A DNA stretch of 63,791 nucleotides, filler included, from Kipferlia bialata (Eukaryota): the NCBI GenBank assembly GCA_003568945.1. It is 7 parts of 7 records of this genome, joined end to end, with 100 filler letters (N's around TTAATTAATTAA, not from the genome) between each part and the next. Parts side by side here need not be neighbours in the genome. Positions count along the whole stretch, not along the records: positions 1 to 11,676 come from BDIP01001202.1; 6 more parts are not named here. One strand, given 5' to 3'. Under the pieces are notes generated by a model. It ran no database searches. It worked only from the letters and a program-made list of their open reading frames with translations, and was not told the origin of the DNA. This document shows, one piece after another, positions 63-57,503 of this stretch. The first letter of the stretch is position 1. The number at the start of each line of letters is the position of its first letter. The translations under genes and the position numbers were made by a program.

Positions 63-2663
63 GCTCAACACCAATGTGACTGTGTCCTCCCTAGTGCTGG
101 CAGACGGGTCCATCCAGATACTGCAGGAGCATTTGAGGTATATATATATAGATATAGTATATATATGTATATATGTATATATATATTATCACATATGTAT
201 GTATATAATGATAGTGTAAATATGGTAAGGTACTGGCAGATGGGTCCATCCAGATACTGCAGGATCACCTGAGGTACTTGAATGTGGATATATATATATA
301 TATACATATATATTATTATTATGTATATTTGTATAAAATGACAGTGTGTATATGGTATGGTACTGGCAGATGGGTCCATCCAGATACTGAAGGAGCATCT
401 GAGGTATTCATATGTATAGTACAGTATTATATATATTAATATAGGATATAATTATATTTTGGATATATATATACCCTCACTCACCCAGGTCCACCAAGAC
501 CGATGTCCTCATTCTGAGCAGGGCATTGTATATATGTATATATATATATATATATATATACAGTAATATATAATGACTTAGACATTAATACATAAATATA
601 CATATGACTATATTTGTATGTATGTGTTCCCACCCCAGGTCCACCAAGACCGATGTCCTTATTCTCAGTAGGGCACTGGAGTACCACACATCCACACCAA
701 CGCCATCGTACGTGACTTGCTGAACAGTATCCATGTACTTCTGTGTGATACATACTTTCGACAACATCATACCCAACGCCATCGTACGTGACTATAGGGA
801 CAACTTAGGAATATGAATAGTATACTTCAGTGATAATACTCTATATACTCCAAATCTGAGACCGAGTCCTCAGTATCTATACAATATCTATATATCTATA
901 TATTCTATATATACTATATAATACAACACTATCTGACACATAGCCCCAATGAGGCCGAGTCCTCCAACCGGTGTGTCAGTGCATGTGCCCAGGCAGCAGA
1001 GGCCGCAGGGGCAGTGTTTGTGTGGGCTGATATAGCCGGTAAGTGTCTATGCATACACTATGTATATATATATATATGTATATATATAAGTATGTGTGTA
1101 TGAGTGTGTATCTCTCCAATGGTGTATGGGCTGACATCGCCGGTGGGTGTATACTATATATATTTGTATATATTCATATATATACTTACATATGTTTAAC
1201 ACATACATACCTAACACCAGGTATGTTTGGGGCCATGTTCCTCAATGCTAGCTCATGGCATATAAATGTATATATATTATGAATCTATATACACTTATAC
1301 ATAGTAATATTATACTATATGTTTATATATATATATACTAATATATGTACCTGATTCCAGGTATGTTTGGGGCCATGTTCCTCAATGCTATATATNNNNN
1401 NNNNNNNNNNNNNNNNNNNNNNNNNNNNNNNNNNNNNNNNNNNNNNNNNNNNNNNNNNNNNNNNNNNNNNNNNNNNNNNNNNNNNNNNNNNNNNNATGTA
1501 TATATATACATATACTATACCCACCCCCAGGTCCAGGAAGTGCAGTGGTCTTGGCAGGCCTCTCAGTGAGGCACTCACTAAGGTATGCTTTACTAGTTAC
1601 ATTATAATACATTATACAATATAATATATTATAAATATTACACGTAATGAGTGTCAGACCTCTCAGTGAGGCACTCACAAAGGTAGTTATAGGCTCTTTA
1701 ATGAGTGTAATTCACATAATATGTGGTATTTACAGAGATAATTGAAACATTGTGATGAGTGTTACCATTATTGATTCATCATCACTGACTATAATTGATT
1801 CATAATCATCAATCAATTGATTTATCATCACTGATTGTCAGGGCAGGGACGGCCTCTGGACCAAGCTGGCTGGGGTCACATTCCCCCCTGTCGCATCTGT
1901 GGTGGGAGGTAAGGGTATATATATGCAATTATATACCCATATATATATATGTATATATATAATTGTATACATGTCCTTGTAGGAAGTGTAGACTCAATTT
2001 ACTAATACATTTCGTATATCCATGCGGTAACCCCCTCTTGCATCTGTGGTGGGAGGTATATGCACTATATAGTGTAATAAACACACATATAGTATATATA
2101 TATAGATGTGTATCTTGAGGTATTATATCTGTGGTGGTATGTATACTATGTGTTCCACATAAGCAAGTGGTGAATCATTATATATATATGTATATATACA
2201 TTACACTGACGCTGACACTGCAGGTCTAGTGTCAGTAACTATAATATTAGCTAATTTATATATATACATACACTGAGACTCCCTATATATACATTTTCAT
2301 ACACTGACACTGACACTCCAGGTCTAGGCAGCAGAGAGGTCACAACCATCGTCACAGGGGTCGGACAGGTATTCATGTGTATGTATATATAGTAGTAATG
2401 AACAGTGAGATATATATATTATACAATACCATGTGCGTATATATAAATAAGTCACAACCATCGTCACAGGGGTCGGACAGGTATGCATATGAGTGGTAAT
2501 ATATTTGTGCGGCTATATTAGCATATAACCAATCTCCCTAAGATTGATACTATTGTACATTTGAATATATACATAAATGTGTATAGTCTTACCCCAGATT
2601 GCTGGCAACTTTATGTTCTCAGACATGACACAGAATGCAGTGTACATTGAGAAGCACGAGTGA
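63..2663 (+). CDS. SAE1: SUMO-activating enzyme subunit 1 (SAE1/Aos1)-like E1/ThiF-family protein, multi-exon, 5'-partial, internal N gap
   Basis: Stitched exons read LNTNVTVSSLVLADGSIQILQEHLR/STKTDVLILSRALEYHTSTPTPS/...GAVFVWADIAG/MFGAMFLNA.../GRDGLWTKLAGVTFPPVASVVG/GLGSREVTTIVTGVGQ/IAGNFMFSDMTQNAVYIEKHE*. The C-terminus parallels SAE1 (APVCAVVGGILAQE...NNFFFFDG). Stop TGA at 2661-2663. Confidence 0.75.
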
Positions 2664-3140: not shown

Positions 3141-4419
3141 ATGGATGTGTCCTCCCCGAGAACTGTGTCTCTTTTGTCACAAAAGAGTCTTTTGTGCTAT
3201 GAGGGAGACTCCGACCCTGAGTGTGACATGGAGCAGGTATACTGCTATACTACTATGAATGTATATATATATATGTATTCATATATACTACGGTAGACTC
3301 TAAGTGTGACTTGGTAAGGGTATACTACTATATTGTATATATATCCAATGAATATTATCCATAGAGTATAACTATCTACAAGTGTAGATATACTATGGTA
3401 GTGTCTGAGTCTCACTTGTGTAGTATTGAAATAGTATAGACAATACAGTATTGTGTGTATATAGTATATATACTATGCATGGTATATATGGTATATACAT
3501 TGTTACTAACACTGTTAGTAACAATTTGTTAGAAATTGTATATATATAACTGTATATAGTGTATATAGTGTATATATAGTATATACATCGTTAGTACTCA
3601 GTTCCAGGCCCTGGGCGATGAGGAGGTCTGGGTGCTATTCGTGGCTTGGTTGTGTAAGGGGTGAGTCTCTCTTACCAAACTTGGCTGGTCATATGTGTCT
3701 CTTTCTCTCTTCTCTTCGGTCCCATACTTCTCTCACCTTAGGATGATGGCCACGACAGAGAACCCGATTACTGATGAGGTTCTGTATGACAAGTATGACT
3801 CTGTGTTGCGTCAGTACTTGTTGGGCTGGATCAGGCGAGGGAACAGAGTGTATGGTGAGATTGAGAGCCGGGGGGTAAGGTATGATATACTATATGTATA
3901 TATATTAGGTATGATATATACTATATGCATATATACACTTGGCATGATATGGTCACTGACGCATTATGTTTGGGTGCATATGTATTCGAACATTTCTCGA
4001 CGAGAAGTTCTCGTGTATGTCTCAACTCAGGTCATTTCGCGAGAAGTATGAGAAGCAGATTCTTGCCAAGGGATACATCACCAAGGTAGGGATATATATA
4101 TATATAGGTATATGTATAGACACAGAGAGAGAGAGAGATACATCACCAAGGTAGGGTCACTTTCATAACCATGTGACTATCATACCCATGTAATTATCAT
4201 ACCAATGTGATTATGTGTTCATGTTTCCGTTATCCTCATACCCAGGAAGAGTTAGCGGATTACAATTTCTTGGTCTCCCTGTTTGGGCATCACCTCTCGT
4301 TCGACACACCCTGGAAGCAGGACTTAGCTCACTATCGTCAGTTTGTGCCCCTCAGGCCTCTTCTCAGGGAGACCCTGGATGATATGATTGCATGCGGGTT
4401 GGATGACTGGGGGAGGTGA
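3141..4419 (+). CDS. Hypothetical protein, about 5 exons
   Basis: GT-AG-bounded exons: MDVSSPRTVSLLSQKSLLCYEGDSDPECDMEQ/FQALGDEEVWVLFVAWLCKG/MMATTENPITDEVLYDKYDSVLRQYLLGW.../SFREKYEKQILAKGYITK/EELADYNFLVSLFG...DDWGR*. No family recognised. Confidence 0.55.
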
Positions 4420-6240: not shown

Positions 6241-9200
6241 TCACAGATACGCTCCAGATATTGAATAGAGAGGCTCTCCAAGGGTCTTTCGAGAGTTCTT
6301 CCTAGTCAGACAGCACTCTTGGGTGACCTCACTGCATCTGGGCAGAACAGAGTGCAGCGCAGTCCCTAGCATAAGATAGCATAGTAATATTACGTATATA
6401 CATATACTATACAGTATAATAGATAAAGTAGTATATATATAGTAATATATATAAGATACATTGGGGTGTACACAAATGTATAGTGAAAGAGAGAGAAAGA
6501 GAAGTACTTGCACTACTGTAGCAACAAAGCGCACCCCCACTAGAGTGAAATCAGCTGGAGTATATACCGAGTAGAACGGCATAATATATTGGGATTTTTA
6601 TAGTAGAGAGAAGTACCTGAAAAATAGTGGCGACTAGACATACACCGACTACGGTGAAGTCGGCGGCGGCAATTGTAAAGGATACCCATCTGGATATGGT
6701 GTTGGTGCCATACTCTCTCTGGGTGTAAGGTACTACATACATATATATGTGTATATGTGTATAAGTATATACATATATATACATATATATATATCTGTAT
6801 GTGTGTATAGGCCAGGACATAGGGTGTATTTATGTATAGGAATATAGCATATCAAACGATGAAACGATGAAACTGCGGCTCCGGATAAGTGCTTCTACTT
6901 TGCTGCTTGATATAGTATGCAACGTGCAACCCACGTCACTGCAGTGGCGGCAGATGGGAACGAAAGTATACAGAGAAATTAGTATATACTTGTGACATAT
7001 AGTATGTATGTGTCCACATAGATACCTTGATGTAGTATGCAACGTCGAACGACGTCACTGCAGTGGCAGCGGAGGGGAAGGTGATGGCCCACCATGACAG
7101 CTGGAACTCAGTCCTATCATAAGGTGGATAGAGAGAGAGAAGTAGAAATGATATTGTCTTGAGCGGTAAAGAGAGAGCGGGGGAATTTGAGTGATGAGCC
7201 ACCAGACAGGGGGGAGAGAGAAGAATGATAGAGACAAGGGAGGGGAGACCTTGTGTCACAGTTAGATTCTATTGGGGCGTAGTGAGAGAGAGAGAGAGAG
7301 AGAGAGTACCTCATCCATGGAATAGCTCTTATGACTAGGAACACCATGGCCAGACACCAGAAGTACAGGCAGGAGTATGCAAACAACCTGGTGGTGAGGT
7401 CTGGTCACAATATACGTTCTCTGCGTCGTATACCAATATAGACAGATACTGGTACATAGTATTACAGATGCGAGGCACCAGAAGTACAGGCAGGAGTATG
7501 CAAATAGCCTGATGGTTAGGGGTCAAGTATCACGAACCTCTGTTTTCTTCTTTATTCAGAATCGATGTCTGCCTCATGTGAAAGAATATTAGGCTATTAC
7601 GTCCCACCGAAGAGGGCAGAGTAGAAGATGCATTTATACATATCTACCTTTGTAAACTAGACCACTGGTATATATACAAATATACGTATATATATAGTTC
7701 AATGTACCTCGATACCACGTCCCATTCCCCCCCTGTGAGGGCAGAGTATGAGATGAAGGCAAGGCCTCCTGGGGCAGCCTGGCGATATGAATATTCAGTG
7801 AATACACTTTGTGAGACAGAGTTCCTACCACATGTCACTTACCAGTATAAATATAGATGGTGTCAGTGCCGGTGCGAGGCTGTGTCCACTGACCATGGAC
7901 ATGAGGCACATGGAGAAGACACCAATATAGAGGATAACACCTATGGTTTAAGAGAGAGAGAGAGAGAGAGAGGTTGACTATGGAGAAGACAATTGAGCAC
8001 AACGCCTATATGATAAGCCAGGTATAGATACGAAGAGTGATTTCACATATGGGGACGGTAACGCCTTCCCAAACGTCTCTGTCACTACACGATACAGTGT
8101 ACCTGCCCCCCAGAACAGCCACCCCAGCTCTGTCCTGTCACATGTGCCCATGCATATGGCCATGAAGAGATTGGCAACGGGGGGGATCTGGGGTAAGATA
8201 CAGTGAAGTATACATATATATATATAGATGAAATAGTGATATTCTAACAACGTATTTGTATTGCGTATATAACATATGGCCATGAAGAGATTGGCCACAG
8301 GGGGGATCTGGTATCAATCCATACGACACTATTGCAGAACTGCCCTATAGACTGTATAGATGATTCTATACGTGTGTTCTACAAGATTTGTTGGGTTGAT
8401 ACTGTCTTTGGGCACTGTTCTCTATATATATTACGAGATGTGACTATAAGTAGATCTAATATTCGCTATTGTGCATGGGATGTCTTACCAGGTTTGTGGG
8501 ATTGATGCTCTCTTTGAGCACTGGCCTCTCTGACAACCACTCCATGAATATGGTGAATTACTACTGTATAGTGTGAAAAGATGATTCTTTATCTATTACT
8601 TACCAAGTTCGTGGGATTGATAGAATCCTTGGGCACTGGTCTCTCTGACAACCACTCTATGAATATGGTGAAGGAGACACCGATATGTGAGCCGGAAGCA
8701 ATATAGCACAGAGCTAATCCTACTGGTAAGATAGCTTGAGAGAGAGAGAGATAGCATTGGTGTAGGAGAGAGCTATATGGGACCCGGAAGCAGTATAGCA
8801 CAAAGTTAACCTTGCAAGTAAGATAGAGAGATACAATAAAGAACACAATGGTATAGATAGATGTGACCATGCACAACATCATGCGGTGGGAGTCGTTTTA
8901 GTGAGAACGACAGAGGGAAAGAGAGAGATCGACAACCAGGGGGATCAGTAAGGAGGAAAGAGAATATCTTCTTCCAGCGGTTGTGTTTCAACCTATGCAC
9001 CCACCCACCTGTGTAGTACCAGGTGTTATGCACCCCTGTGCTGGTATAGACACCCTTCCATAGGTCAGCTACCCCTAGGTATGAGAGAGAGAGAGGCAGA
9101 GGCTAGATAGAGATATAGCACATATGTAGAATTCATATACACTCAGTAAGGCGGAAGCAGAAAGGAGAGGTCCTGAGACGGAGGCTATCGGAGCTAAGTG

Positions 9201-10332
9201 AGTCTTAGAGAGGGAGAGGGGGAGAGAGAATTTGAAACAGATGGGTAAATCCACACCTAGACAAATGATAGCCAGACATATCCCAATGGCAGGGAAGAAG
9301 TTGCGCTTTACTGGGTGCTGATGGTAAGAGCGTAGTGACGAAGAAATTACGTGTGTGTCGAGAGAGAGAGAGTTTAGAGAGGGTAAGACCACAGTGGCAT
9401 TCCCAACTATAATACGTGTTTGTGTCGAGAGAGAGAGAGTAACTGGATTGCGGAAGGAGAGTGAAGTGAGAATTGCGAAAGAAATGGAGAGGAAGGGGGA
9501 GGGAATTACATACCTTGAACTCCATCAATGCCAATATATATTGAGGCTATAGAGAGAGAGAACAGAGAACATACCTTGAACTCATCCGAATACAGCACAC
9601 TGGAGGGGTCCTAAGGGTGTAGAGAGAGAGAGACAGAGAATATAGAGACAGAGAGAGAGAGAGAGACCATACCTTGAACTCTTCCACCACACTGGAGGGG
9701 TACTTGATAACCCTGAGGGTAAGAGAATAGACATATATAGGGAAAGAGAACTATATGAGAAGCTAAACAGGGAGCGATAGAATGAGATAACAGTGATATA
9801 GATATTGGTGCTGATACTATATGTAGGAAACACACCTTGCTATAAACATGACTAGGAACCCAGTGAAGACTGCAGTGCCCAGTGCTAGATAGAGTGATGC
9901 CACAATTGAGGGCAAAGCATAGTCTCTCTGGAATAAGGGGCCAGGGAGAGAGAGAGAGAGAGAGGGGGGACGAAAGAAGATGTTGCATGTACCCGGATAT
10001 ATATGCAATAGTAGTATATACCTGTATGCGTCTGAGCACCAGTGTAGGGGAGAGGAGGCCCATGAAACCTGACAGTAAGGGTGTAGCTTAAGAGAGAGAG
10101 AGAGACAGGAGGCCCATGAAACCTAGGGGTGAGGGTGTAGGCAGAAAAGAGAGAGAGAGAGAGAGAGAGAGACTGAACCGGGAAGACCTGAGAATCAGGC
10201 ACATAGGAGAGAGGGGAGAATTGTCGAGAGAGATATAGTTACAGGAGAGAGAGAGACAGAGACTGACCTGGGAAGAATGCGATGCTGACATGCTCCAGCC
10301 AAGTGGTGGAGGCATGAGGCACTGGGGAGTAA

Positions 10333-10384
<52 letters not shown>

Positions 10385-10967
10385 GAGAGCATCAGGCACT
10401 GGAGAAAGGGGAGGGGGTAGCGGCAAGGGGGTAAACACTATGCTGAGAGAGAGTCTCTGTGTAATATGGGAGGAAAGGGAAGAGAGTTCACATACCTATA
10501 TCCACTGAAGTGTCCGGTGTCTTGCCTAGGCGTCTCTCATTACCTGGGGGGTGAGAGAGAGAAGAAGGAGAGATTACGGAGAGGGGGGGATATTGAAAGA
10601 AACTCAGAGCAACTAATTAATAGAGGGGAGAGAGAGAGAGACGAATGGGGAGGGGGGGGGGGGTATGTCAGGAAGACAAGTATATACATACAGACCCAAA
10701 GTATTGTGCAAGAGAGAATGTGTATCTGCAGAGAGAGAGAGAGAGAGAGAGAGTACCTGTGTGCTCAATCTGGGTGCAGTCCCTATCCAGCACCACCTCT
10801 ACCTCCATCTCTTCCAGAGTGCCACACAGCTCTGGAGTAACAGCTACAGACACATCCCCCTCCCTCAGGACTCTATCATCCATATGGATACTCCACACTA
10901 CGTATGGACACTCACGAAGATAGGTGTCAAGCAAATTGACTAATTCCGAATCGAGAGTAAAGTACAT
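6241..10967 (-). CDS. SLAC1/TehA (TDT family) anion channel/transporter, many exons
   Basis: Stitched minus-strand exons contain VIKYPSSVVEEFK/HPVKRNFFPAIG (SLAC1 HPVRVNFF), WLSERPVPKDSINPTNL/IPPVANLFMAICMG..ELGWLFWGAG (TehA LPTVANNF), AAPGGLAFISYSALTGGEWDVVSR, and FQLSWWAITFPSAA (conserved WxxxFP gate motif). Confidence 0.85.
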
Positions 10968-30638: not shown

Positions 30639-31790
30639 TTACTCCATTTGATCCAGGTCAGCGTCCGACACCATGTCGAAGCTTCTCCGTCTTGCAGAGT
30701 TGATCCCCCACTCTAGCTCAGAGTCCGGGTACAGCAGAGACTCATCAAATGAGAGCACATACAACCTTCCATTCCCAGTAACGATGGCGGTGTCGTGAGA
30801 GTACATCACACTCTCGCGATACTCGTGTTTCTCTTCATCCAGATTACTTTCCCACACCTCTACCTCGCCTGATATGGTATCAAAGGCAACAAGCTCTATG
30901 AGGTGAGTTGGAGCGGCCCCCTCTGCTTCAACGCCTCGGTACCGTCTCCTCATGACAAGGAACTGACCCACAACAAGGGCCTTGCTCTGATCATGGGACT
31001 TGTACAGTAAGTCCTTGTCCTCTATGGGCTCCATCTCCCAACCCCTCCCCTGGCGGTATGTGACGTGAGTCTCCCCCCCAATGAAGTGCGCTGTCCCACC
31101 AACCACACCACTGTAGTATCTGAATAGACAAACAGGGCTCTGAGGAAGAGTAGTCCACTCACCAGTGTACGGATCAAGTAACCATGCCTTGCGGGAGCGT
31201 ACCAGAAGCTCTCTCTCCCTGTGGTCATGGCCACAGTATCCACCATCCGTGACCAATAACCTGCCGTCCATTGGTACTAAGGCTTCAAAAATATAGTAAA
31301 ATGCCTATACTATATAGTAAAAACTCTCATTGACATAGGGCCCCAGTAGTGTCTGTAGGCCTCTGCCGCAGTGGGACCCCCTGTGTCGAGAGGGGGACTG
31401 TACTCAAGGTCATGCTGCAGGTATCCCCCTTCGCCTTGGAGAATGTCAACATCAGACAGGTCATGCACAAGAAAGGAGTGGCCATCAAAGAACACCATCA
31501 TACCTCCCACTACACCAACAGGAACGACCTGGTCGTAGACCCTCACTCCCTTCCGGACAGTGATGTCTGCATACATCTGATACGGGAGACTGAATCCTAG
31601 GATGTATGAGTCTTGGCAGTAGTCGTCCTCATCATAAGACAGGTCACTGAAGGTGCTGATGGCATACACCTGGTTGTGACCCACTTTGACCATGGGGAGC
31701 ATCCGTGTCAGTCCGCAAGGTCCCGTCTTGACCAGGTGGCGGTGCTCGCAGCAGACAAACGCGAAGGGAGTCGGACTCATCAGGTGTTTG
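30639..31790 (-). CDS. Divergent kelch-type beta-propeller protein (about 1 intron)
   Basis: ORFs 31310-31810 and 30639-31271: GRLLVTDGG, AWLLDPYTGEWTTLP, GGTAHFIGG, VAFDTISGEVEVW. Confidence 0.7.
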
Positions 31791-32068
31791 GTGGTTGACT
31801 GATACCACACTCTGGCTCTACTCTGGAGAGACAGGAGGTCCGAGACAGGGACCCCGTCAACTAGACGGTATCAACAGTAACTGTACAACACCCGTACAGT
31901 ATACGTATGCTGAATGTCATCAATGAAATATACAGTTAGGGGCTAGTTCCTACCAATTGCTCACTCCCAGGAAATACTCAATCATATGATTAGTCACAAA
32001 AAGAATGAGGGTCTATTCTGTCAATGGCTTGTGTCGACACAGTCAGTTGTCACTCTTCAACCTAGCCC

Positions 32069-35990: not shown

Positions 35991-38900
35991 TCACTGTCCC
36001 TGTGGGTGGGGGGTGGGTGGGGTGCGTGTCCCCTGCTTGTGTCTGAGGGAGTGGGCAATCTCCCGAATGATCTCCCTTCTCTCAGCCACCATGTCATCCT
36101 GGACATCAATCAATAATTAATTAGGGGGGCAGGGCACACACTGGGTATACATATGTATACTGTACATATGTACATGGTGGGTATGTCAGCCACCCCAATG
36201 ATATCCGCAGACACCCAATTCCCCGTCCCACTTGCTTCTGCCCCTTCAGCTTATCAGTATCAGTATATATATATGATCTTTTATGATGATACCGATACTG
36301 ATATATGACACTGATCCAGACCCCACCAGTATATAGATATAGATATATATAGATATATATATATACAGATATATATAGATATAGATATACATAGATATAG
36401 ATAGATATAGATAGATATAGATATATCCCACCTGCTTCTGCCGCCTCAGCTTGTCAGTATCAGTATATATATATATAGATAGATAGATATGGACAGATAG
36501 ATATATCCCACCTGCTTCTGCCTCCTCAGCTTGTCCTCCAGCACCCTCTGGTCCATGTCGAAGGTCAGGGCCAGGCCGCCCTCGCTCGTCTCCTTGTATC
36601 TGCTGTGCATGTCGAGGCCTGATAGCTTCATACTACAGGGTCAGACAGCTACATGCTATAGTAGTATATAGTATATCATATATATATATATATATATACA
36701 GTAAGACAGCTACATGCTATGGTAGTATATAGTATATCAGCGATATATAATATCAGCTATATATAATATCAGCTATATTGTATATCAGCTTCATGCTGCA
36801 TATATATATACATGTATACAGTCAGACAGCTTCATGGCATGTATGATATATACAGTATAGATATGTATGATATAGACAGTATAGATATATACAGTATAGA
36901 TATACTCATGCTGCACAGTCAGAGGCCCTCTGACTCAGAGGGAGATGGTAAATGTAGTGTGTGTAGTATATAGTATATATACATGTACATACAAGTGCAG
37001 CATAGCTTCATGCTGCACAGTCATCGGCAGTAGGGGGTGGTATACATATATACATGCTTCATACAAACATAGCTTACACACAAAACGCGTAGCGCACACA
37101 AGTCACTAAATATATACATACAATCATATGCTATGTACTGCATATATCCACATATATACACACACACCCATACCTGTGCACACACTCATCGTATGACACG
37201 AGGTGGTTCCCTTCTCCCATCAAAGCCAGGTCGGCACAGTCGAGGGCCCTGGGGTGAGATACAAACATATACACTATATATGGTATATAGTATGTATATA
37301 TACAGTATGTATAGTATGTGATCAGGTCGGCACAATCCAGGGTACGGGGGGAGGGGGAGTATGGGGGATAAACAAACACCTATAATGAGTCTGTGTTACA
37401 CATATACACATCTGGGACCATTATGTGAGAAAAGACCCATACATAGAGGGATACTATCAGTTATACATATGAATGATGAGGAGAATCATGCATCAAACGC
37501 CGTGCTCTCGCTGATAGGATACTGACACTGGTGTGTCGCGGGGCCTCACCTGAGTGCGGCGTGTCCATTCCTCTCTATGCAGGGCACAATGACCTTGCCA
37601 TGGACTGGGTCACACTGGGATAAGGCATATATTTAGGGATATATCTAAGGATATATATACATACATAGACATATACATACATAGACATGGGTATATACCA
37701 ATGACCTTGCCATGGACTGGGTCACACTGGGATGAGATGTATACACGGTATAGATAGAGACACATACACATACACACACATATATATATACATAGACATT
37801 GGTATGTGCCAATGACCTTGCCATGGACTGGGTCACACTGGGGTAAGGATATGTATAGGGATATACATAAGGATATATAAACACACATAGACATACACAT
37901 ACATAGACATAGGTATATATCAATGACCTGGCCATGGACTGGGTCACACTGGGGTAAGGATATGTATAGGGATATATATAAGGATATATAAACACACATA
38001 GACATACACATACATAGACATAGGTATACATCAATGACCTTGCCATAAACACTGGGGTCGGGGGGGTAACCGTATGTGTATGCATGTATATATGTCAACA
38101 CTATACATAAATATCCATATAAATATCTGTATCTGCATCCACATCCATGGCAACGTATATATCGTATCTAACGTACAATCAGGCCTAGCTGGTGCTCCAG
38201 GGCACTCTCTGCAGCCGTCTCTATCTGCTGGGGTCCCCCGCCCATGAGGTATGCCGCTGCCGCTGCGGCCATGGATGTGGCAACACCAACCTGGGGGGAG
38301 GGGGGGGGGGTCCTATAGCAAGGTCACTGCCACTGCCTCCTTGAGACATATACACTGATATACACACACTCATATACATACACTCATACAGTGCAATGAC
38401 ACTATCCGACTATGTCATATATACATATATTAGTACACATGTCTATACACACCCACCTCCCCCTGGCAGCCAACCTCTGCCCCAGAGATGGACGAGTTAG
38501 CCTTTGCCACGTTGCCCACCAGCCCTGCCACGGCTATGGCATTGATGATGTCACAGTCCGACAGACCCAGCTCATCCTCTGGAAGGTAAGGGGGGGAGGG
38601 TATAGAGGGTATATATAGAGAGAGAGGCACAGAGAGCAGTGGGGGTGAGAGGGAGGAGGTGTATATATGGGTACGCACACATACACAGGCATATATATCC
38701 ACACATGCCACTCACTTAGGTACACCAGCACCGCAGGCAGCACACCACACGATCCACAGGTGGGGGCAGTCACCACAACTGGGGTGAGGGTGAGGGGTGA
38801 GGGGTGAGGAGCTAGGAGACACACTATGCACTATATATATATATATTCATATATATATATATATACACTATGAGGGGACTGAGGGTCAATGCCAAATAAT

Positions 38901-39273
38901 ATATATGCTCGGACTGTGGAATACATCTCATACACATATCCAACTATACAGCTGTACATCTGTACAGTGTGGTGTATACACCAGTCCATACCATTGGCTG
39001 ATGCGTTCTGCTCACTCACAGCATGTGCATAGGCATTGACGAGGGAGGTGCGACGTCTGTCAGGTAAGGTGCAGTATATACAATGGTGCAAACTCGTACA
39101 TATAACCACTGAAGTATCACAAATGAACTCATCCAGTGTGTCTAGATACACTGAGTGAAACATACACCCATGCACACATCTATCCACCCCCACCTTGATG
39201 GGGGCATTGTCCTGCTGCGTCGGTAGAACCTAGCTGCCTTCCTTGGATATGTCATGTCATCTGTCAGTACCAG
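35991..39273 (-). CDS. sdaA: Iron-sulfur-dependent L-serine dehydratase (SdaA-type), bacterial-like, intron-containing, 5'-partial
   Basis: [87 protein letters not shown]. The three 4Fe-4S cysteines (GCQ, CDP, PCIERN) are present. Confidence 0.92.
37587..38060 (-). repeat. Five-unit tandem array (period about 111 nt) of acceptor + exon start (CDPVHGKVI) + TA-rich spacer
   Basis: 'caatgacc' recurs at 37587, 37699, 37810, 37921 and 38032. Confidence 0.9.
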
Positions 39274-41710: not shown

Positions 41711-42315
41711 GGAGGGTGGGGTTGGACATACCCTGAGCCTATGAATACGAGGTTGTTTGTGACCTCACAATTATCATAACATATACGCCAGTTAACGTTC
41801 CATGTCGAATATATAGTTTATCATTATTGGAACCAACGCGCGTGGTGGCATACTCGGGTGCAATGAACATGTATAGTTAACTATGTACTGGCAAGGTACA
41901 GTATGAGAATGAGAAGAAGGAAAGCTAGTGAAGAGTCTTCACTAGCTAGCATGTCGACAATACACTGATGACACTACTTGCTTTCCTCTGAGAGTAGTTT
42001 GGCCACATCGGTTTGTGAACCAATCTTTGGTTCAAGTAAATTATGTACTACATATGTATATGTGACGCCATATTATGGGCCCCATAAGATCACATATACT
42101 TTGGAATCTCCGCAGTCCCATATAACGCAGCCCTGGTTGTATGCAGAGATTCAGCCTTTCTCTCAGCAGATCATAATAGATCCAGATATTTCCATGTTTG
42201 CCACTATTACTCTTGACTCTACACTTAGAGTAGATCAAGGTGTCACTGTAATGAAGTCTACAATGCAAAAGATACGCTACCAGCCTCCAGCCTGGTCTCA
42301 CTCAGAGACGTCGAG

Positions 42316-43344
42316 ATGACATTCCCCTCTTACAACACTGTTAGTGACGCAACCATGGTACTAAAGGCCTGGTATGACCACTACACACTGGCACTGCCTG
42401 ACTCCACCTGCCTCCGGATAAGGATACAACTGGTCCCTCTGGAGTACAACACCGCTCTGTTGACATATCATGAGGGCGGCATCGGCCAACAATGGAGACT
42501 GCTGGCACTGAATGGCGATCACACCGTCACAGAAACTCAGATGTGTGTTCCAGACTCCCTCGCTGCCATGTCCTATCCAACAATAGCCAGGGTAGGCAAC
42601 CATGTAGTTGTCTACTGTGTGTACAGAGATGGCAACCTCTACGGCTCCTGCGTGTACATATACAACCTTGAGGATCAGTCGTGGGAGCAAATGACAGCAG
42701 TTGGAGAGGGTCCTCCTGCAAGGGAATATGGTGTCATGTTTCCACTATCAGACAACTTTGGGAACACCAGTGCCATTCTGACAGGAGGTGTCGATAGAAG
42801 TGACGAAGACAGACCACGTTTTACTGACGCCTGGCTACTTGACACCCAGTCCAAGCAGTGGACTCAGCTCAATGATCTGCCACGTTCACTTACGCTCCAT
42901 GATACTTGGGTGTCTTTCAGCAATCACTATGTGATCATTAACACTATTCACCAGAGTTTTAGTGCTACTCTACAGGATGACACCCTTCACACTGCCTATG
43001 AGGACACACTGTATTGCACCAGGGGAGAGAAAGTGCCATATTCGCTTATGCGCTCGCTTGGAAGCAACTGCAAGCGTGTTCTTCTGGGTCCCTTGGAGGA
43101 CACATTCCTTCAAGCGAGAGACCACCTCAACATGTGTGCTGTCTGCCTCTATGATATAGTGTCCAATGAGATTACTACCGGGAAGCCACTACCTATAAGA
43201 GGATCTCTCTTCACCTGTGGTGCTGTTATGCTCAACCCGACCACAGCTCTTGTGGTGGGTGACAGACAGACGCTGGTGGTGGATGTGCTGCCAGGGATAC
43301 TAGACACAGACCCACATCCTATAACGGTAGGCAGAGAGAACTGA
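42316..43344 (+). CDS. Intronless kelch-type beta-propeller protein, 342 aa
   Basis: Long ORF with IYNLEDQSWEQM, GPPARE, ILTGG..FTDAWLLDTQSKQWTQL, LYDIVSNE. Confidence 0.8.
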   Translation: MTFPSYNTVSDATMVLKAWYDHYTLALPDSTCLRIRIQLVPLEYNTALLTYHEGGIGQQWRLLALNGDHTVTETQMCVPDSLAAMSYPTIARVGNHVVVYCVYRDGNLYGSCVYIYNLEDQSWEQMTAVGEGPPAREYGVMFPLSDNFGNTSAILTGGVDRSDEDRPRFTDAWLLDTQSKQWTQLNDLPRSLTLHDTWVSFSNHYVIINTIHQSFSATLQDDTLHTAYEDTLYCTRGEKVPYSLMRSLGSNCKRVLLGPLEDTFLQARDHLNMCAVCLYDIVSNEITTGKPLPIRGSLFTCGAVMLNPTTALVVGDRQTLVVDVLPGILDTDPHPITVGREN

Positions 43345-47361: not shown

Positions 47362-49206
47362 GACTGGATGTATGGCAACCAGGACAATGGAGAGACAGGA
47401 ATAGTGCACGGCCGCACTGGAAGGGTATGTACTGTACCAGTGGTACCATTGGCATTGTTTCATATTTGTCTTTGTATGTTGCTATATATACACTATTCTA
47501 TATATATAGATCATATCACACCCATATACTCATTATAAAAACTACATGCATCAATAGTATGTAGCAGTGTCTGCGTCACTGTGTATCATCTCACCCATAG
47601 ACCGGGTGTGTCGCTGTCACGTGGACTGGCAACCCCTGGTCTAACCAATACAGGGCAGGCAGAGGCGGCATGTACGTTACCCAGTACATCCTTGTAGCAT
47701 AGATATATGTACATATAGCTTGTTTATATACATGGGGGATAGCGTGTAGATATATAGGCAGAGGCGACAAATACGTACATAACATGTAACCCAGAGTACT
47801 TCTATTTCTGGTCATACGTATATATAGATTGATACAGGGCAGGCAGAGACGGCATCTACGTACACTTCAATACTATTACCCAACAGTTCTCCAACCTCAT
47901 CCGTGAAGTGCTGTATGCCATATACATACTGCAATGCATGACTAATACTCATGCTCACTATCACTAATAGGTAGGTATGACCTTGAGTACAAGGAAGCAG
48001 AGCCAATCACTGAGACAGCGGGTCAGGTAAGAGCTTGGTTTTGTGTACAATACTACCTGCTAGATGTAAACATTGGAAATAGGACCCCACCACATCTCTC
48101 GTGCTACACACACACTCATGAATATCCATAAACTGCATGTCTAGACCTCTTGAACATTGTTTAGACATACACCACTGTACATGAATCATTTGAGCATACT
48201 CCTATGCTGACCCCTCTATCTATAGGTGCCGTGTACTAACATCCAAGAAGATACTCTGTTTGTAACACAGCAATACTTGTATGATTCATCTATATACACT
48301 ACTGTGTAAACAGATGAGATTATATATGAGTAGTGTTGCACTACTAGTGTATGTATATAGAAGGGCTGTGTGTTTGCTAATGTGCAGACCCTCACCCCTG
48401 ACACCGTGTGTGCCTCGTCTGTCCGTGTGGGTGCCAGGGTGATGAGGGGTAGGGACTGGAGGCTCACAACGTAAGTAGCACATGTGTAGAAATGTGTATC
48501 TTTGTATCATTGTCTATAATAGTATATTTACAGTATATATTCTAGTACTCATATATATAAGAAGGACCGGTAGAAGCGTGTTGGTTACATGCTATTACAA
48601 GTGTAATTTACGCACCACTATTACAAGTATGTATTGCATTATACATTTTCCTTCACACCTCACCGCATGGGACAGTCTAAGTGACAGTATAGTGTGATAG
48701 TCACAGTATATACTACCGATATATATTGTACACTATGTTTAGTCTTCACACCCCACATGTGGTTCGGCCCACTTGCGGCATATTCCTATATACATATAGA
48801 TATCGTACCCCTCCTCCCTAACCACAGATGGGACTGCCCAGACGAGGGTTATGTAGGGACCATACTCGATGGACACAGTATGGTATGTGACACACTTCCT
48901 ATAGGACATTTGGATATACTACGTATAGGGAGTGAATATTTAGTGATTATGTTCATGTGATGTGACACCGGATGGTACGTGACCCACCTATTGGAGAGGT
49001 TCTGTTTATAGTCCATTCATATATATATAAGAGCCTCTATATGTGTCGTAGAGTTATATATACACTCTCGATGGGCACAGGCTGTCACCACGTACGTTGT
49101 ACGTTGTACGTTGTACGTTGTACGTTGTACGTTGTACGTTGTAGAGTACATGCTGGCTGGGTCTCTGTCAAGTGTGTATAATACTCTGGCTATAGTATGA
49201 ATATAT

Positions 49207-49237
<31 letters not shown>

Positions 49238-49303
49238 GTAGTACATACTAACGCTAGGCTGGGTGGGTCACTGTCAAGTGTGTATAATACTCTGGCTATA
49301 GTA

Positions 49304-49342
<39 letters not shown>

Positions 49343-51000
49343 GTACATACTAACTCTAGGCTGGGTGGGTCACTGTCAAGTGTGTATAATACTCTGGCTN
49401 NNNNNNNNNNNNNNNNNNNNNNNNNNACTGTCAAGTGTGTATAATACTCTGGCTATAGTATACGTATATGTATATATATATATCTTTATACATATAGTAG
49501 TACATACTAACCCTAGGCTGGGTGGGTCACTGTCAAGTGGGACGACAGGGAGGGTCTATACAGACACAGGGCTGGATACCAGGGGAAGTACGCATGCCTA
49601 TTTACTTACATGTTCATATATGGTTTCTTCTACGTATGACAAGAGCATCTCTCTCTTTCCCTCACTTCCCTGAGTTCCCTCACTCCCAGGTATGGTCTTC
49701 TCTCTTCTGACTAGGAATACTATAGATTTATAGTATACTGTATGTACGTGGATAGAGAGATGCCCCCACCCCAGGCATGACCTTGTCTACTTTGGTGGCA
49801 TTGACCATGGGTCCCTGGGCAGCAACTACTACCCAACACCCCCCCTACAGGAGTGGGCAGACGACAACATCAGTGACTCACACACTGACACTGAGACTGA
49901 TTTTAGTCCCTCAGTGGAGGAGTATAGCGCTGGTGAGAGGTCTGAGGCGTCATCTGCTTACATGCCAGAGGCAGGAGAGGCTGTATCTGTCCTAGATAGA
50001 CTGAGGATAGGAGCTCGGGTCATGATGGATCCGGACCGTCTGCGGGTATGCAGATATATACAAATATTCGTCTCCATATATATTCATATATAGAAGTGAT
50101 GCTGCAGACACTGGGCGTCAAATGTTGAGGTATAGGGCTATGGTATTGAGATGTAATATATATATATCCTACCAAACGTATATATATTGTAAATGATTAA
50201 AGGTATATGTACATATGAGTAGAGGGGCAGGGTGGACAGACACAGTATCAGGTACAAACCTCTGTACTGTTAATATCCATTTTTGGAATCATGTATATAC
50301 ATATTAGTGAATGAAGTATGAGTAATAGGGGCCAGAATGGTCGGCCTTTCTTACTGTGTAGATGTGTTGAACACCTTGACCTTTTACTTACACTATATCC
50401 TCTTGAGAACCAGGTTTATCTCTCTTTCCTCACTATGTCTCATCTCTAGGGAGTACGTGATCACGTTGGCATAGGCATTCTGGTGGGAAGGTGTGGTGGG
50501 TTAGTGCGGGTCAGGTAGGAGCTATATGTGGTTTCAGTCCAACTCTATATTACTTCACATTGAAGTCATATCACTTGTTAAGTGAGATACATGTTGCAAC
50601 ACGGTGAACTGGTTGTGACTACAATGCATATTCCCCATATGACTATTTCTCATTGCATAAATATATATCGTTCTGTAGATGCCCTCTCACAGGGGCGATG
50701 CCCCTGCTGTTATACATAACACACTTTGTATACACTCATGGCACACATAGGAGATATATACAGTGTACATAATATATGCATACACTCCTCCGATACACTT
50801 ATATGTATACATATATATATATATATATGCTTCTATCACTTCACTCTTACTCCTAGGTGGCCAAACGGAGAGGAACCCAAGCTCCATTTTGCCAATCCTG
50901 TGTGTGACTACAGGGACCTGGGTTTCGGTGAATGTGAGCTCGTATACGCCGACTTGGAGAGCGGCTGGCTGGTATGTCAAGTGTACATGTATACATGCAC

Positions 51001-51036
<36 letters not shown>

Positions 51037-52850
51037 GTACACATGGGAAATAGGCGTTTGTAGATATATCTGAGAACCAGTTTCAACCGGCAGTGTAAAG
51101 CTAGAACTCATACCAGGATTAAAGTCCTTCTGATGATGCTGCAGGCACAAATATATCATATGATATATGTTCTGTGTATATATATATGTATGCATGTATA
51201 CAGTAGAACTAGTGTTAGTCACCGCGTGGTTTGACCTCATCACAGGACTCTGGCCCTGGTTCTGACACCGAGGACTCAGAGTCAGAACCAGACCAGCAGA
51301 CTGCAACAAGGTGACAAGTATCACATATTTATATACACAACACATACATCGTGTAGATAGTGTTCAGTATATTGTGAAAAGAATCCTACTGGATATATTA
51401 TTGGCGATTCTAGCTCTGCCTTCTCAGGGCCGGTTCTTCAAATAATGACTATATATAGTACCATACATTCTTAGACCAGAATAGGTACCCCCCCTTGCAT
51501 AATTACTCTTACCCCAGAATGGTCTACTTTGGAAGGCCTGATTCCGGCACTGTTGTCCCGGAAGATGCATATATATATATATATATACCTGTACACATAC
51601 AATGACATCTGACCTCCTAGATGCTAACAGACCACTGATTACAATATATTGTTTATATAGTGTATGTAGACACGCTAGACACGTGTAGAGTATTATCTAC
51701 ACGTACTGCCTGGCCTGGCACTGGTGCTGCACTGTGTTCTATACTGTATACCTATATACTCTTACCCTCTAGGTCTGACCCCGCCTGGCCTGGCACTGGT
51801 GCTGTTGTGCAGGCTGACAGACTCAGAGTAGGAGCCAAGGTGCTGAGGGGACCAGACTGGAAGTGAGTATTGGTGTGGTATAGTATTGTGTATACAGTTG
51901 TACATATGTGTGGGGCAGGCATTGAGTGTGTGTATTCCACATAGTATATATATGGAATGTGTATATATACTGACCTCCCAGGTGGGGCAACCAGGATGGT
52001 GCAGAGGGAGAGGAGACACCCACCCCAGGCACAGTGCTAAGGAGGGATGGCACGGGGATGGTGCGGGTACGGCATTAGGATACGTAATAATGTAATATAC
52101 ATGTATATGTAAGACGGTACTGAGTGCATCATAGAGTGGTGGCACGAGGTTGGGGGAAATGGCATAAATGCCAATATGTATTTTATACATGCCATAGCCG
52201 TACTGACCCCTAGGTGGAATGGGCCGATGGCTCTCTCAATGTGTACAGGGCATCTGATCCCGACTTCGACCTTGTCTATGCAGACAGTGACTCGGTAGAG
52301 GACACTCTGGTGTGTACACTTTACACTGTACATATACCATGTGCACAATGTATATAATTTATATGTACTGTGTACACATGTGATACATATGACGTTGTCT
52401 ATGCAGACGACTCTTTTGGAGAGACCACTCTGGTAAGTATAGACACTACACCTATTCTATACATGTTATATTCACAATGTAGAGTCTTCGATCACATATA
52501 TCTATATTCTAGATATGTGCTGATAATTGACTAATCGCTGCAGACTCTTCCTATGAGAAGATATGCCTGGTAAGAGTAGACACATAATATGTAACGTATA
52601 TATATAGCTATGACCTAATGTGTTTACGATGGGTTGACATGACTGCTTGAGCATAGTACAACCATAGCTTGCTCCCCTCTCACATTGTAACTCTGCTTCT
52701 CTATCTCTCCTAACCCCAAGACCCTATATAGTGGTGTGTGCCTTCATGGGAATCAGTTTAGTAGATATAGTCTCATATGCTCTCTATGCTCCCCATACCC
52801 TGTCATATATCACCCCAGACCCTCCACTCCCTATTTGAGTTCCCATGAGG
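47362..52850 (+). CDS. Tandem MIB/HERC2-domain protein (about 4 repeats), 5'-partial, 3' end uncertain
   Basis: DWMYGNQDNGETG; VGARVMRGRDW; GARVMMDPD; VGAKVLRGPDWK/WGNQDGAEG..GTV..VEWADGSLNVYR..FDL. These match the MIB_HERC2 consensus GxRVxRGxDWxWGxQDG. Confidence 0.8.
49165..49539 (+). repeat. Intronic tandem repeat, about 102-106 nt unit, containing a (TA)n tract
   Basis: 'aggctgggtgggtcactgtcaagtg...ataatactctggctatagta' recurs about 4 times, with a small N gap inside. Confidence 0.85.
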
Positions 52851-54233: not shown

Positions 54234-55234
54234 TCATTCCGCATCGTCTGCAACGATGACCGCCCCTGGGGGAAGCACTGCCCACCTCATGTTGGTGTGT
54301 GGGTACTCTAGGCCAGGGTCGATGTAGTCGAGTGTGTCACGGTAGTACCCAGGCCTAACTGCAAGAGCAGGGGAGAACATTATACCGCACTGAGAGTCGG
54401 GAACATTGTCGGAGAACCTGACTGCGTCGTTGGACACTGTGTCAAAGCAATACCACTGGGTCCTGCCTCCTACAAAAGGGAAACGCACCCGGAAGCACAT
54501 CAGAAGCAGCCTCCCAACTGCTAAGAGTGCCAGACACGCTGCTTCCTTTGGAAAGACTGTATCCGACTCGCAGTCCCACCCCACTGATGTGCGAAAGGAT
54601 ACAACCTGCTGGCTGGCATTCAGTGCATATGCCCTCTCCCCTATGACTGGAAGGTAGGCAGCGCAAAAGGGGTGTAGCTGTGGGGCCTTCCAGTTGAGCA
54701 ACACCCACCCGTCACACTGTCTCTCCGGGTCAAAGCGCCACATACAGGCGTTGCTTCCTGCTGTGCTGGCATCTCTCTCCACCAGGTAGCAGCAGGTGTC
54801 CAGTGTGAATGCTGACAAGGCTGAGGTTGAGACTCTTGGCGGCCCTCTCAGGGAAGGGAACGTAACCTTAGTGAATGATGCCGGGCCACCCAGATTCATT
54901 ATTGACACTGTAAGAACAAGACTGTTCCCGTTCTGTTCACAGCCACAGGCATACAGAATGCCCCAACGTAGAACAGGTGGGGAACAACAAGGCCAGGTGT
55001 GTTTATACGCTGATGCACGATTCTGCCTCCGTCCAGTAGTTGGTCGAGATACATCACCGCCTCCACTGCGTCCATCGCAGCGTGGGTGTTATGTCCAAGA
55101 TCGACGCCCGGAAAGGCAGCACCCAATATTATGTCGACTCTCGTGTGGGCAATACACAGTGGGAGGTGGTGGGCCATGTTTGACTGGATTAAGACTTCTA
55201 ATATAGAAGTATCAAGCAGGGCACACGTGGTCAC
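54234..55234 (-). pseudogene. Kelch-like gene split into two overlapping ORFs (frameshift)
   Basis: ORFs 54899-55234 and 54234-54908; MWRFDPERQCDGW, VIGERAYAL, WYCFDTVSND. Confidence 0.55.
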
Positions 55235-55679
55235 TTACTGGAACCAAGAGATGAAGACGTCACCGGCAGTGATTCACCGCTGTAGTGCTACTTCGGGGCC
55301 ATCAGCAATACCGCCAAGAGATACCCAATTCCTTCTGATACCATGTTGTTAACTCTACAGTCAGCTGTGATGAGAGATCCTTGGCAGATGGATTGAGTTC
55401 CGGACATGCTACGCAGATTCTGTAGCAATATTGACATTTGCCAATTGCAGCCAGTGGAACGACGTGGGAGGTTGTGGGCTGTGGGATTTAGTCGCTAATG
55501 GCCTGTACCCTAGAGGTAACCCCGTCTATATACAACGATATCATTCACAATAGACTTCTAACAGAACGTCATGTTATCCCGTTGAGTAATAATGAAACAC
55601 CACTCCAATTCGGGATCGAAGTGTGTTCAGTATAAGTATCAGTACTAACACTACATGGACTCCATCCATAGCCCTCTTA

Positions 55680-56823
55680 TCAATACTCCTCATCTGTGTC
55701 CTCCCAGTCGCTCTCACTCTCTTCCACCCATACATCTGCTGGTGGCGTTATGTCCCACACATCATCGAGGTTGACAGTACTGGGCGACAACAGAGCTATG
55801 TTCAGTGTTCTCACAATCAACTCACCCTCCCCCAACATCAGAAACTCTGAGGGCGACACGTATGCCAGCATCTCTCCAGTGCAGAAGCACCCATCAATAT
55901 CCTTACTAAGGATAATCCTTAGGCGATCTCTCTTCATCATAGAAGGGATCACTGCGGAACTCGCCAGACACTGTATCATACAGAAACATCCACCCTCTAC
56001 TATCCGTATCGCAGTCACGAAGGATGAGTAAGCGATCTGTGGCAAGTACCATCTCAGTATCAAACGGCATGCTAACTGGGGTGCCCCACCCTGAGCTCTT
56101 GGTGAACTCACACACACTCCGACGTATATCCATTGAGGTTACGGAGCCAAGGGCAAACACGTTGCGAATTGGAACCGATATCATAATGCGACGTATTTGT
56201 AGGTGATCATCCGACCAAACAAACTTCTTTTGGGTTCCGTAACGAAGTATAGCAGACAGCGGCTGGTTTGAGGACGATCCAAAATCCTCCCACGTAGCTG
56301 TAGTGCGACTGTGGACTAGGTGTTGCAACCTAGTCAGCGGCTCACACCCATTCCAAGCAAAACAACACACCTGGTCCTCACATACAAATGGACGGCTAAC
56401 ACTGACCAGGTCTACGTCAATATCCAACCACTCCCCAGTGTCAACTGAGACAATGCCCATGTGGTCTTCAGAACAGACATAGACATACCCACCTGTACAG
56501 AGCAGAGTGGACAAGTCTTTCCTCTGACATAGAGGGAATTCCCCCGGCACAACACCAAGATTCTCTTGCGTGATTGAGCCATCGGTGTGTATATGGATGT
56601 CATAGCAGAATACATCACGCCGAGTCTCTCTGGCAATGACCAAGGGGAAGTTCCATTGCGATGTTGGACTGTCACTGTCATAAGTCAAGACCTGTTGCAT
56701 GTCACCAGCTACGAGCATGAAGACGTGCCTTGGGGTGGTAGCTACCATACTAAGCACCTTGGGTGTATTGGCATACTTGTATACAACGTCATGTGACACT
56801 AGGGGCTCAGGTTGGTTGGGCAT
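55680..56823 (-). CDS. Kelch-like gene, 305-aa ORF (possibly frameshifted or spliced at the 3' end)
   Basis: IVSVDTGEWLD, EFTKSSGWG, FLYDTVSGEF. Confidence 0.6.
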
Positions 56824-57503
56824 GGGATGGAGAGAGTGGGCACAGGTGGGTAGTTGAACGGTGTAGACTGGGTGACTTAGACCGACTGATGGTTTGGCTG
56901 TTATGTGGTATATCGGCGACTGGTGCTCTTCTCCTGACCATCGACCTTGGTAGAAGTGGAGTATGATGACCTCCTGGATAGCGGATACCAGTTCGGGTAG
57001 GTTTCTCGTGGTACTGTAGAGTGAGACTACAGTGATAATAGCAGACCGTAGTTTGGTAGCCTCAGTGCGAGGAGGACATCATGTCCTCTACGCTACTGTA
57101 GAGTATCAGTATCAGTATCTTTATACTGCAGTACAGTAAGAAATCTCATTCACCCATAGATTGTGACATATAGTCCGGGTCAGACTGTCAGACTTTGGAA
57201 ATGCAGAAGCTACATTCCATACTACTCCGCAAGGGTTTAGCTGAATCTCAATTAGATTTGTGTCCTCCAATAGGTGATAGTGACTATAGTGACTATGTAT
57301 ATGTATTCTATCATATCATCAGGAAACTCCTCTCTGCACTATCATACTACACATAGTGCAGCACTATGTGCCCTAGTCTTGTACAGAAAGAGCAGTGCTC
57401 ACTATACGACCGTACTCGACTTACTGGCATTTCTCTTAGACGTGCATGTGTCTCTCTTCAAACAGGGTGTGAGGGGGGAGTAGTATCACCAGTCACCCCA
57501 TCC

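Follow-up and report, generated by a model that had tools for sequence, protein, structure and literature searches.

Intron gain by tandem duplication was reportedly worked on by Gao and Lynch in 2009. Tandem exon duplication is also the origin of mutually exclusive exons, in which adjacent exon copies carry mainly silent differences, and one-sided invasion, or aborted synthesis-dependent strand annealing ended by end joining, is known from plants, Drosophila and mammals as an occasional form of repair. Intron gain through tandem genomic duplication of an exon segment containing AGGT has been described (Hellsten et al. 2011, PMC3265369) and is treated in a review (PMC3443670). Tandem duplications of ~10-500 bp are described as common in a study whose accessible text contains none of the words "intron", "exon" or "splice" (10.64898/2026.02.28.708716). 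Introners and break-repair introns are accompanied by repeats of 3-9 bp that flank the new intron (PMC9860276, PMC3443670).

Here, we analysed a stretch of 63,791 nucleotides of Kipferlia bialata DNA (the window), whose pieces are joined by N44-TTAATTAATTAA-N44 spacers and to which all counts below are limited. Over a third of the introns examined (21/56, in the six best gene models) carry copies of exon ends, here called echoes, that have diverged like two working versions of a gene.

Exon echoes in the window

The K. bialata genome paper describes a short-read assembly with 124,912 introns and two k-mer peaks, which are read there as suggesting diploidy (PMC5874029). We catalogued 52 echoes across 12 gene models, including the following genes:

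63..2663, plus strand: gene A (P0020, 161 aa), with 10 catalogued echoes
6306..10967, minus strand: SLAC1/TDT anion-channel gene, 16 exons, 15 GT-AG introns, 438 aa
23706..27993, plus strand: ceramide glucosyltransferase gene (P0019), with 8 catalogued echoes
35995..39056, minus strand: serine dehydratase gene (PF03313), with 6 catalogued echoes, among them acceptor echoes that form a head-to-tail array at 37699-38046

Reading frames were set independently of the echo pairs from P0001, P0019, P0020 and Pfam-anchored serine dehydratase exons, and those of eight further genes were taken from a small gene predictor. The catalogue was derived from 56 matches by removing four unanchored ones and one deleted array unit, merging two diagonals and adding two SLAC1 echoes by hand (6508-6555 and 9508-9522). 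A first pass with the best frame per pair was circular and served to pick candidates only. The exon end at 4416 is off by one base and was omitted from the intron profile, from parts of the divergence and simulation analyses and from the site-retention count.

The first exon of the SLAC1 gene matches P0001, a K. bialata voltage-dependent anion channel, at 100%, and the gene product matches Pfam PF03595 over the membrane domain (E 1.7e-38, 133 bits, cut-off 27.9). The start of its exon 9 was set to 8719 from P0001; the acceptor there is a tandem CAG-TAG at 8717-8722 (minus strand), the distal one being used by P0001 and by a spliced contig. Beyond Kipferlia and Dysnectes, the closest relatives of P0001 are proteins of 280-334 aa at 27-32%, two of them named tellurite resistance protein, and the fornicate channel may have come from a bacterial-type protein. 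A paralogue, P0002, is 53% identical. The transcript of a paralogous channel, consistent with P0002, aligns at ~80% at 7056-7108 and 7717-7779; its contig depth is higher, which is no measure of expression. A Pfam search with four exons of gene A returned no match. Long intron-poor frames at 30639-31870, 42229-43344 and 54234-57078, several with kelch-like or propeller-like words by eye, carry no echoes and are conspicuous among the short exons typical of this genome.

Exons matched the adjacent intron in 38/210 pairs but an intron of another gene in only 3/738, and 50 of the 56 matches were anchored at the expected exon end. These data bear out the layout proposed in an initial annotation of this DNA, in which an exon end and its splice site are copied into the intron. 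The polarity is strict: the acceptor and exon start are copied upstream, and the exon end and donor downstream. Echoes hold 14-69 nt of exon at a median period of 98.5 nt. In the duplicated intron part, identity exceeds the control for the first 15 nt, and this part is alignable in 14/51 pairs. Nearly all spacers are missing the far splice site. The echoes are thus head-to-tail duplications that span a splice border, each unit comprising exon and intron parts. In the six best models, echo-bearing introns have a median length of 268 nt, compared with 95 nt for echo-free introns; subtracting the echo units leaves a median of 133 nt (shortest 47-85), so that what remains is an intron of normal size. 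Echo units make up 34% of the intron bases of these models and have thus contributed heavily to the growth of introns in this intron-rich fornicate. The parasitic relatives of Kipferlia are almost without introns.

A further 31 repeats with periods of 45-300 were found, most of them, by eye, at splice borders or within expanded arrays. None was found in 7.0 kb of putative intergenic DNA, a roughly assigned class, which fits a process tied to exon homology.

Several arrays were observed. At 37699-38046 (minus strand), four acceptor echoes form a 111-nt head-to-tail array, in which each unit has an internal AG|GT that could yield a 21-nt in-frame microexon; the intron part of the third unit is 22-27% diverged and its exon-like part identical. 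Over the whole array, the exon-like 28 nt differ at 0-1 sites and the intron parts of the same units at 2-22 of ~82, the latter changes being mostly transitions in alternating purine-pyrimidine DNA (15/22). Near-perfect units including the intron part occur at periods of 58 and 81 and as two serine dehydratase units, and no second allele is needed for these. In a few young units, the first bases belong to CT or TA repeats. At 1203-1390 (plus strand), two copies of an acceptor and exon start lie beside an assembly gap and may have reversed polarity. About four near-identical acceptor echoes of period 102-106 lie at 49152-49539 (plus strand) around a 27-N gap, where the copy number may be mis-assembled; the host gene presumably encodes repeated domains like those of MIB/HERC2. 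A 3' echo at 52268-52439 (plus strand) encodes a shifted orthologue-like peptide and, being unanchored, was excluded from the counts.

Divergence between echoes and exons

The features of the SLAC1 gene to which the following comparisons refer are:

8604..8719, minus strand: exon 9, source of three echoes
8489..8557, minus strand: 3' echo of exon 9 with donor GT, 69 nt, period 115; 5 silent and 3 replacement codons
8383..8423, minus strand: second 3' echo of exon 9 with donor GT, period 221; 8 silent, 1 replacement
8758..8809, minus strand: 5' echo of exon 9, period 92; 4 silent, 5 replacement
8272..8307, minus strand: 5' echo of exon 8187-8103 with acceptor AG, period 120
7469..7508, minus strand: 5' echo of exon 7387-7310 with acceptor AG, period 121
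7603..7630, minus strand: decayed 3' echo of exon 7778-7708, period 125, donor lost
6906..6960, minus strand: 3' echo of exon 7113-7026, period 119/120 (1-nt gap), donor lost
6508..6555, minus strand: 3' echo of exon 6718-6617 with donor GT, period 109
9575..9612, minus strand: 3' echo of exon 9712-9673, alone among the 52 in having a strong acceptor and a strong donor
9508..9522, minus strand: short second 3' echo of exon 9712-9673 with donor, added by hand
10104..10122, minus strand: 5' echo of exon 10068-10022 with acceptor, period 54

All five exon-echo pairs named in the initial annotation were confirmed base for base at the stated coordinates. 8604-8636 and 8383-8415 both encode VPKDSINPTNL, with 8 of 11 codons differing, all silently and including a Ser TCT/AGT; the five differences between 7348-7387 and 7469-7508 are all silent, as are the three between 8152-8187 and 8272-8307. 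Between 6617-6664 and 6508-6555, 14/16 third and 0/16 second positions differ (13/15 and 0/15 in the scored alignment), but five amino acids change; the nearer echo 8489-8557 is present, but its amino-acid changes had gone unmentioned. In the second 3' echo of exon 9, the intron part that follows is alignable and differs at 11/34 positions, and two of the five replacements in the 5' echo match the paralogue P0002. Within exon 9, the limits of the 5' echo and of the nearer 3' echo all but coincide (8666-8672, minus strand), so that the two jointly cover the exon nearly once, probably by chance. No other pairs in the window are as strong as the named ones: SLAC1 has 37 silent and 19 replacement codons, compared with 38 and 40 in the other genes.

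The annotation had also held that a neutrally decaying copy should show more replacement than silent differences. This is the wrong null: since the exon itself goes on accumulating silent changes, the ratio of fourfold to zerofold divergence (d4/d0) is expected to be 2, corresponding to ~40% silent differences by arithmetic from the site counts. Neutral decay simulated through the same aligner (250 runs) gave a median d4/d0 of 1.98 and a 99th percentile of 3.40. The observed value for the nearest echo per exon side (42 echoes) was 4.34 (bootstrap 2.7-6.8), which was reached by none of the 250 simulations, and would be ~3.8 by arithmetic without the hand-added 6508-6555. The codon-patterned divergence that had been pointed out in the SLAC1 gene therefore exceeds the proper null as well. 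For all 52 echoes, d4/d0 was 3.74, and for the SLAC1 echoes 5.16. The 33 nearest non-SLAC1 echoes gave 3.77, reached by 4/250 simulations. The alignment of exon ends with their flanking introns, which the annotation proposed for the genome and which here covers the window, thus shows a silent excess that is weaker outside SLAC1: the full set of 41 non-SLAC1 echoes gave a d4/d0 of 3.10 (bootstrap 1.8-5.1; P 0.11 for the departure from 2), and 17 echoes in predicted-only genes gave 2.30. Overall, the excess holds up at roughly half the size that the chosen examples imply, and it is modest outside SLAC1.

Where the intron part could be aligned (14/51 pairs), the intron differed at 85/446 positions (19%), third positions at 21/111 (19%) and zerofold sites at 9/223 (4%), where neutral decay would give ~10% (P 0.0008); the restriction to alignable pairs biases against this outcome. 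Across 41 pairs, intron identity and third-position divergence were not correlated (rho -0.13, P 0.41). Third-position divergence was overdispersed (P 0.00085). Differences at fourfold sites were mostly transversions (19 transitions, 30 transversions), which rules out CpG-type deamination of exons as their cause.

Nine exon sides with several echoes allowed changes to be assigned to one copy. Echo-private codon changes comprised 15 replacement and 11 silent ones (zerofold sites 13/253, fourfold 6/62), indicating that echoes decay now, while exon-private changes were all silent at the codon level (6 silent ones and, in addition, both halves of the Ser change). The suggestion in the annotation that echoes "are or were" constrained, or were copied from a constrained source, is accordingly supported for the past or for the source but not for the present. 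The history of echo and exon therefore includes either a long period of shared constraint or rates that depend strongly on context.

The main rival to the reading that we prefer below is that sister-chromatid or slippage tandem duplication (microhomology-mediated, ~55-150 nt) left the exon intact and the echo decays neutrally at uneven rates in hypermutable TA/CA-rich intron, the excess above 2 reflecting chance, selection of striking cases and rate variation. We consider this possible, if doubtful. The near-perfect units, the near-neutral echo-private changes, the transitions in the array introns, the non-significant excess of all 41 non-SLAC1 echoes and the reported commonness of such duplications agree with it. 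The simulations with and without SLAC1 speak against it, as do the echo with 13/15 third and 0/15 second positions changed and the empty intergenic DNA, and intron hypermutability leaves unexplained why third positions diverge at the intron rate while zerofold sites do so five times more slowly.

Renewal of exons by error-prone cDNA- or RNA-templated repair, with echoes as frozen fossils, was another candidate of the annotation. The silent exon-private changes would agree with such renewal, as would some echo residues that look ancestral in matching the paralogue or Dysnectes where the exon differs, and transcript-templated repair has been discussed for metamonads (PMC8516963). However, the intron DNA is not frozen, its duplicated parts being 19% different, as much as third positions, or unalignable, and the intron number given in the genome paper would speak against heavy cDNA conversion; we regard this explanation as highly improbable. 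Frequent conversion or collapse between echo and exon, removing replacement changes from the echo, appears very unlikely. It could yield the greater uniformity of the exon-like parts of the array relative to the intron parts, but collapse loses the echo whether a change is silent or not, and by the same reasoning silent and replacement differences would be erased at an equal total rate, so that conversion or deletion between the repeats could not raise d4/d0 above 2. The deletions between echo and exon that the annotation proposed to look for were absent from the DNA joints listed, three further joints not being shown.

Assembly, transcripts and splicing

DNA contigs of run X1 (542-2019 nt) run through all of the named exon-echo pairs with 0 differences and at a uniform depth of 447-472; the assembly may have been built from run X1, which is then not an independent sample. 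Mis-assembly of haplotypes or paralogues is extremely improbable: the assembly is a short-read draft with gaps adjoining two arrays (1396-1495 and 49400-49426), but the X1 contigs cover the pairs evenly and the strict polarity of the echoes is unlike mis-joins. No second allele at a level of at least 80% over 3.9 kb was found among the X1 contigs, which drop variants, and no alternative letters were listed.

Run X2, which is presumed to be RNA, was taken to be spliced, since GT-AG introns present in X1 are skipped by the joints of X2; its evidence consists of joints, and bins covering only echoes have no X2 cover. An X2 contig of 1372 nt joins the exon copies with 0 differences and skips four echo-bearing introns of the SLAC1 gene (8188-8603, 7388-7707, 6719-7025 and 6366-6616), so the echo letters that the annotation proposed to look for in mRNA are replaced by exon letters throughout, in this one gene and in contigs, where rare forms are invisible. 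The spacer, echo and old intron are missing from the transcript as one stretch, for example of 416 nt, which is also compatible with stepwise removal.

Echoes might serve in minor splice forms, or in conditions other than those sampled, with protein-level selection in place. The codon-patterned divergence and the retention of splice dinucleotides (GT in 22/29 and AG in 15/21 echoes) agree with this, and the transcript evidence comes from contigs that drop rare forms and from one gene. The spliced contig nevertheless carries exon letters across all four introns, the period is a multiple of 3, which would keep the frame through the echo's own splice site, in 16/51 echoes (chance 1/3), such use is free of stops in 8/51, echoes cover only part of an exon, and echo-private replacements outnumber silent changes. 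Only 1/52 echoes has both a strong acceptor and a strong donor; this cassette-like echo (9575..9612) is out of phase with its exon, and the length of the spliced contig leaves no space for it. These data make splicing use of the echoes unlikely, and we rate their maintenance through minor forms as quite improbable; the unusual splicing proposed in the annotation finds no support in the skipped echoes or their periods.

Decoy splice sites in echoes often score as high as the real site. In the SLAC1 transcript, the sites nearest the exon are used in both echo orientations, which would point to exon definition in this one transcript. Echoes are natural decoys of equal strength on which exon definition can be tested, skipped by a reduced spliceosome of 87/174 proteins (PMC6679479). 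They also mislead gene finders, and the predictor used here took several for exons.

Possible descent from diverged alleles, and known systems

The reading that we prefer, with moderate confidence and as favoured rather than proven, is that echo and exon go back to diverged alleles, which homologue-templated break repair or later allelic recombination brought together; capture from diverged alleles was among the candidates of the initial annotation. Its other proposed source, a paralogue, is ruled out for P0002, which at 53% identity is too distant. The silent differences of the copy would have arisen while it was still a working exon. By one route, a break in an intron would be repaired on the homologous chromosome, with exons as the sole good homology; synthesis would copy the intron of the other allele, enter its exon and halt, and the halted end would be joined to the unresected end by microhomology, giving the own exon, the own intron stub, a piece of the other allele's exon and its intron. 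By a second route, an ordinary tandem duplication would be followed by allelic recombination that exchanges the exon-side copy. Only border echoes would remain, because selection would purge whole-exon copies that have both splice sites and a switch within an intron would leave no visible trace.

Descent from diverged alleles would account for polarity, border specificity, the order of divergence and overdispersion by one process, the overdispersion being as expected for donors of differing depth, whereas plain duplication would call for two distinct rate effects. The d4/d0 values above the simulated range, the serine dehydratase array with its uniform exon-like parts and diverged intron parts, and the echo residues shared with the paralogue or Dysnectes but not with the exon also favour it. 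By arithmetic, the silent excess would correspond to a mean fourfold divergence between donors of about 0.15-0.2, with a few near saturation. The partial intron stub on one side and the whole intron on the other fit homologue-templated repair, and sister duplication predicts the same. Metamonads are reported to lack Ku-type end joining, and all fornicates examined to have lost Rad51A and kept two Dmc1 (PMC8516963), and Dmc1 tolerates mismatches that Rad51 does not (PMC8682777); this repertoire fits the homologue repair route.

Some points stand against the allele reading. Two extreme echoes (8/11 codons; 13/15 third positions) need near-saturated donors, deeper than ordinary alleles, and there is no second allele among the X1 contigs, while several units are near-perfect; some echoes are plain same-chromosome duplications. 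The modest excess outside SLAC1 and the missing correlation between intron identity and third-position divergence also count against it. We found no other Kipferlia that could serve as a second isolate, and a metagenome scan gave two loci at 32% identity that are not Kipferlia.

More tentatively still, Kipferlia, with mismatch-tolerant Dmc1 and neither Ku end joining nor Rad51, may, once lineages have crossed, routinely use strongly diverged homologues to mend breaks, exons being the sole islands of homology, and its introns would then form a genome-wide archive of thousands of other-allele exon fragments. If so, past sex or hybridisation and allele diversity would be readable from one genome that is now nearly homozygous, and diverged-homologue repair would be a main driver of intron length in Kipferlia. 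The allele reading in itself would mean that one genome records former outcrossing between diverged lineages, and would bear on what Dmc1-only repair does to a genome and on the question of sex in Giardia's relatives. The echoes look like a by-product of repair and recombination, and the idea of a dedicated system, raised in the annotation, is unsupported.

Our literature search, with subscription journals and supplements outside its scope, returned no account of such echo density or allele-like divergence in Kipferlia; the main text of PMC9860276 does not mention Kipferlia, and that of the genome paper does not contain "duplicat" (PMC5874029). With AGGT intron gain, as described in the sources cited above, echoes share a short intragenic tandem duplication that is removed by splicing and leaves the protein unchanged. 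In contrast, the echo unit straddles an existing splice site, the decoy donor or acceptor is kept, and an existing intron grows: no new intron was found between the copies, and spacer, echo and old intron are removed together. Microhomology-mediated tandem duplication (10.64898/2026.02.28.708716) shares the unit size, the head-to-tail layout and the secondary expansion of arrays, but its copies are identical at birth, which predicts d4/d0 of 2, compared with 4.34 and, without SLAC1, 3.77 found here (2.30 in predicted-only genes), and it predicts no tie to exon borders.

Introners and break-repair introns likewise involve direct repeats tied to introns, in the form described in PMC9860276 and PMC3443670, whereas echoes repeat 14-69 nt of exon and their spacers share no element. 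An Introner or transposon with target-site duplication was rejected, spacer-to-spacer identity between loci in the window being at background (control 0.50).

Mutually exclusive exons resemble the echoes in being adjacent exon copies with mainly silent differences, but an echo copies only part of an exon and has a single splice site, and the transcript that was checked skips it; an own acceptor and donor over a whole exon, as in mutually exclusive or cassette exons, was not found, the 1/52 with both sites being out of phase. One-sided invasion would leave a copied stretch bounded by one homologous and one end-joined border, giving a tandem duplication, and, with a homologue as template, would bring in the letters of the other allele. 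Elsewhere these are occasional events, not a genome-wide source of a third of the intron DNA. Taken together, the echoes work like a known kind of event, intragenic tandem duplication tolerated by splicing, and their density and allele-like divergence are apparently new.
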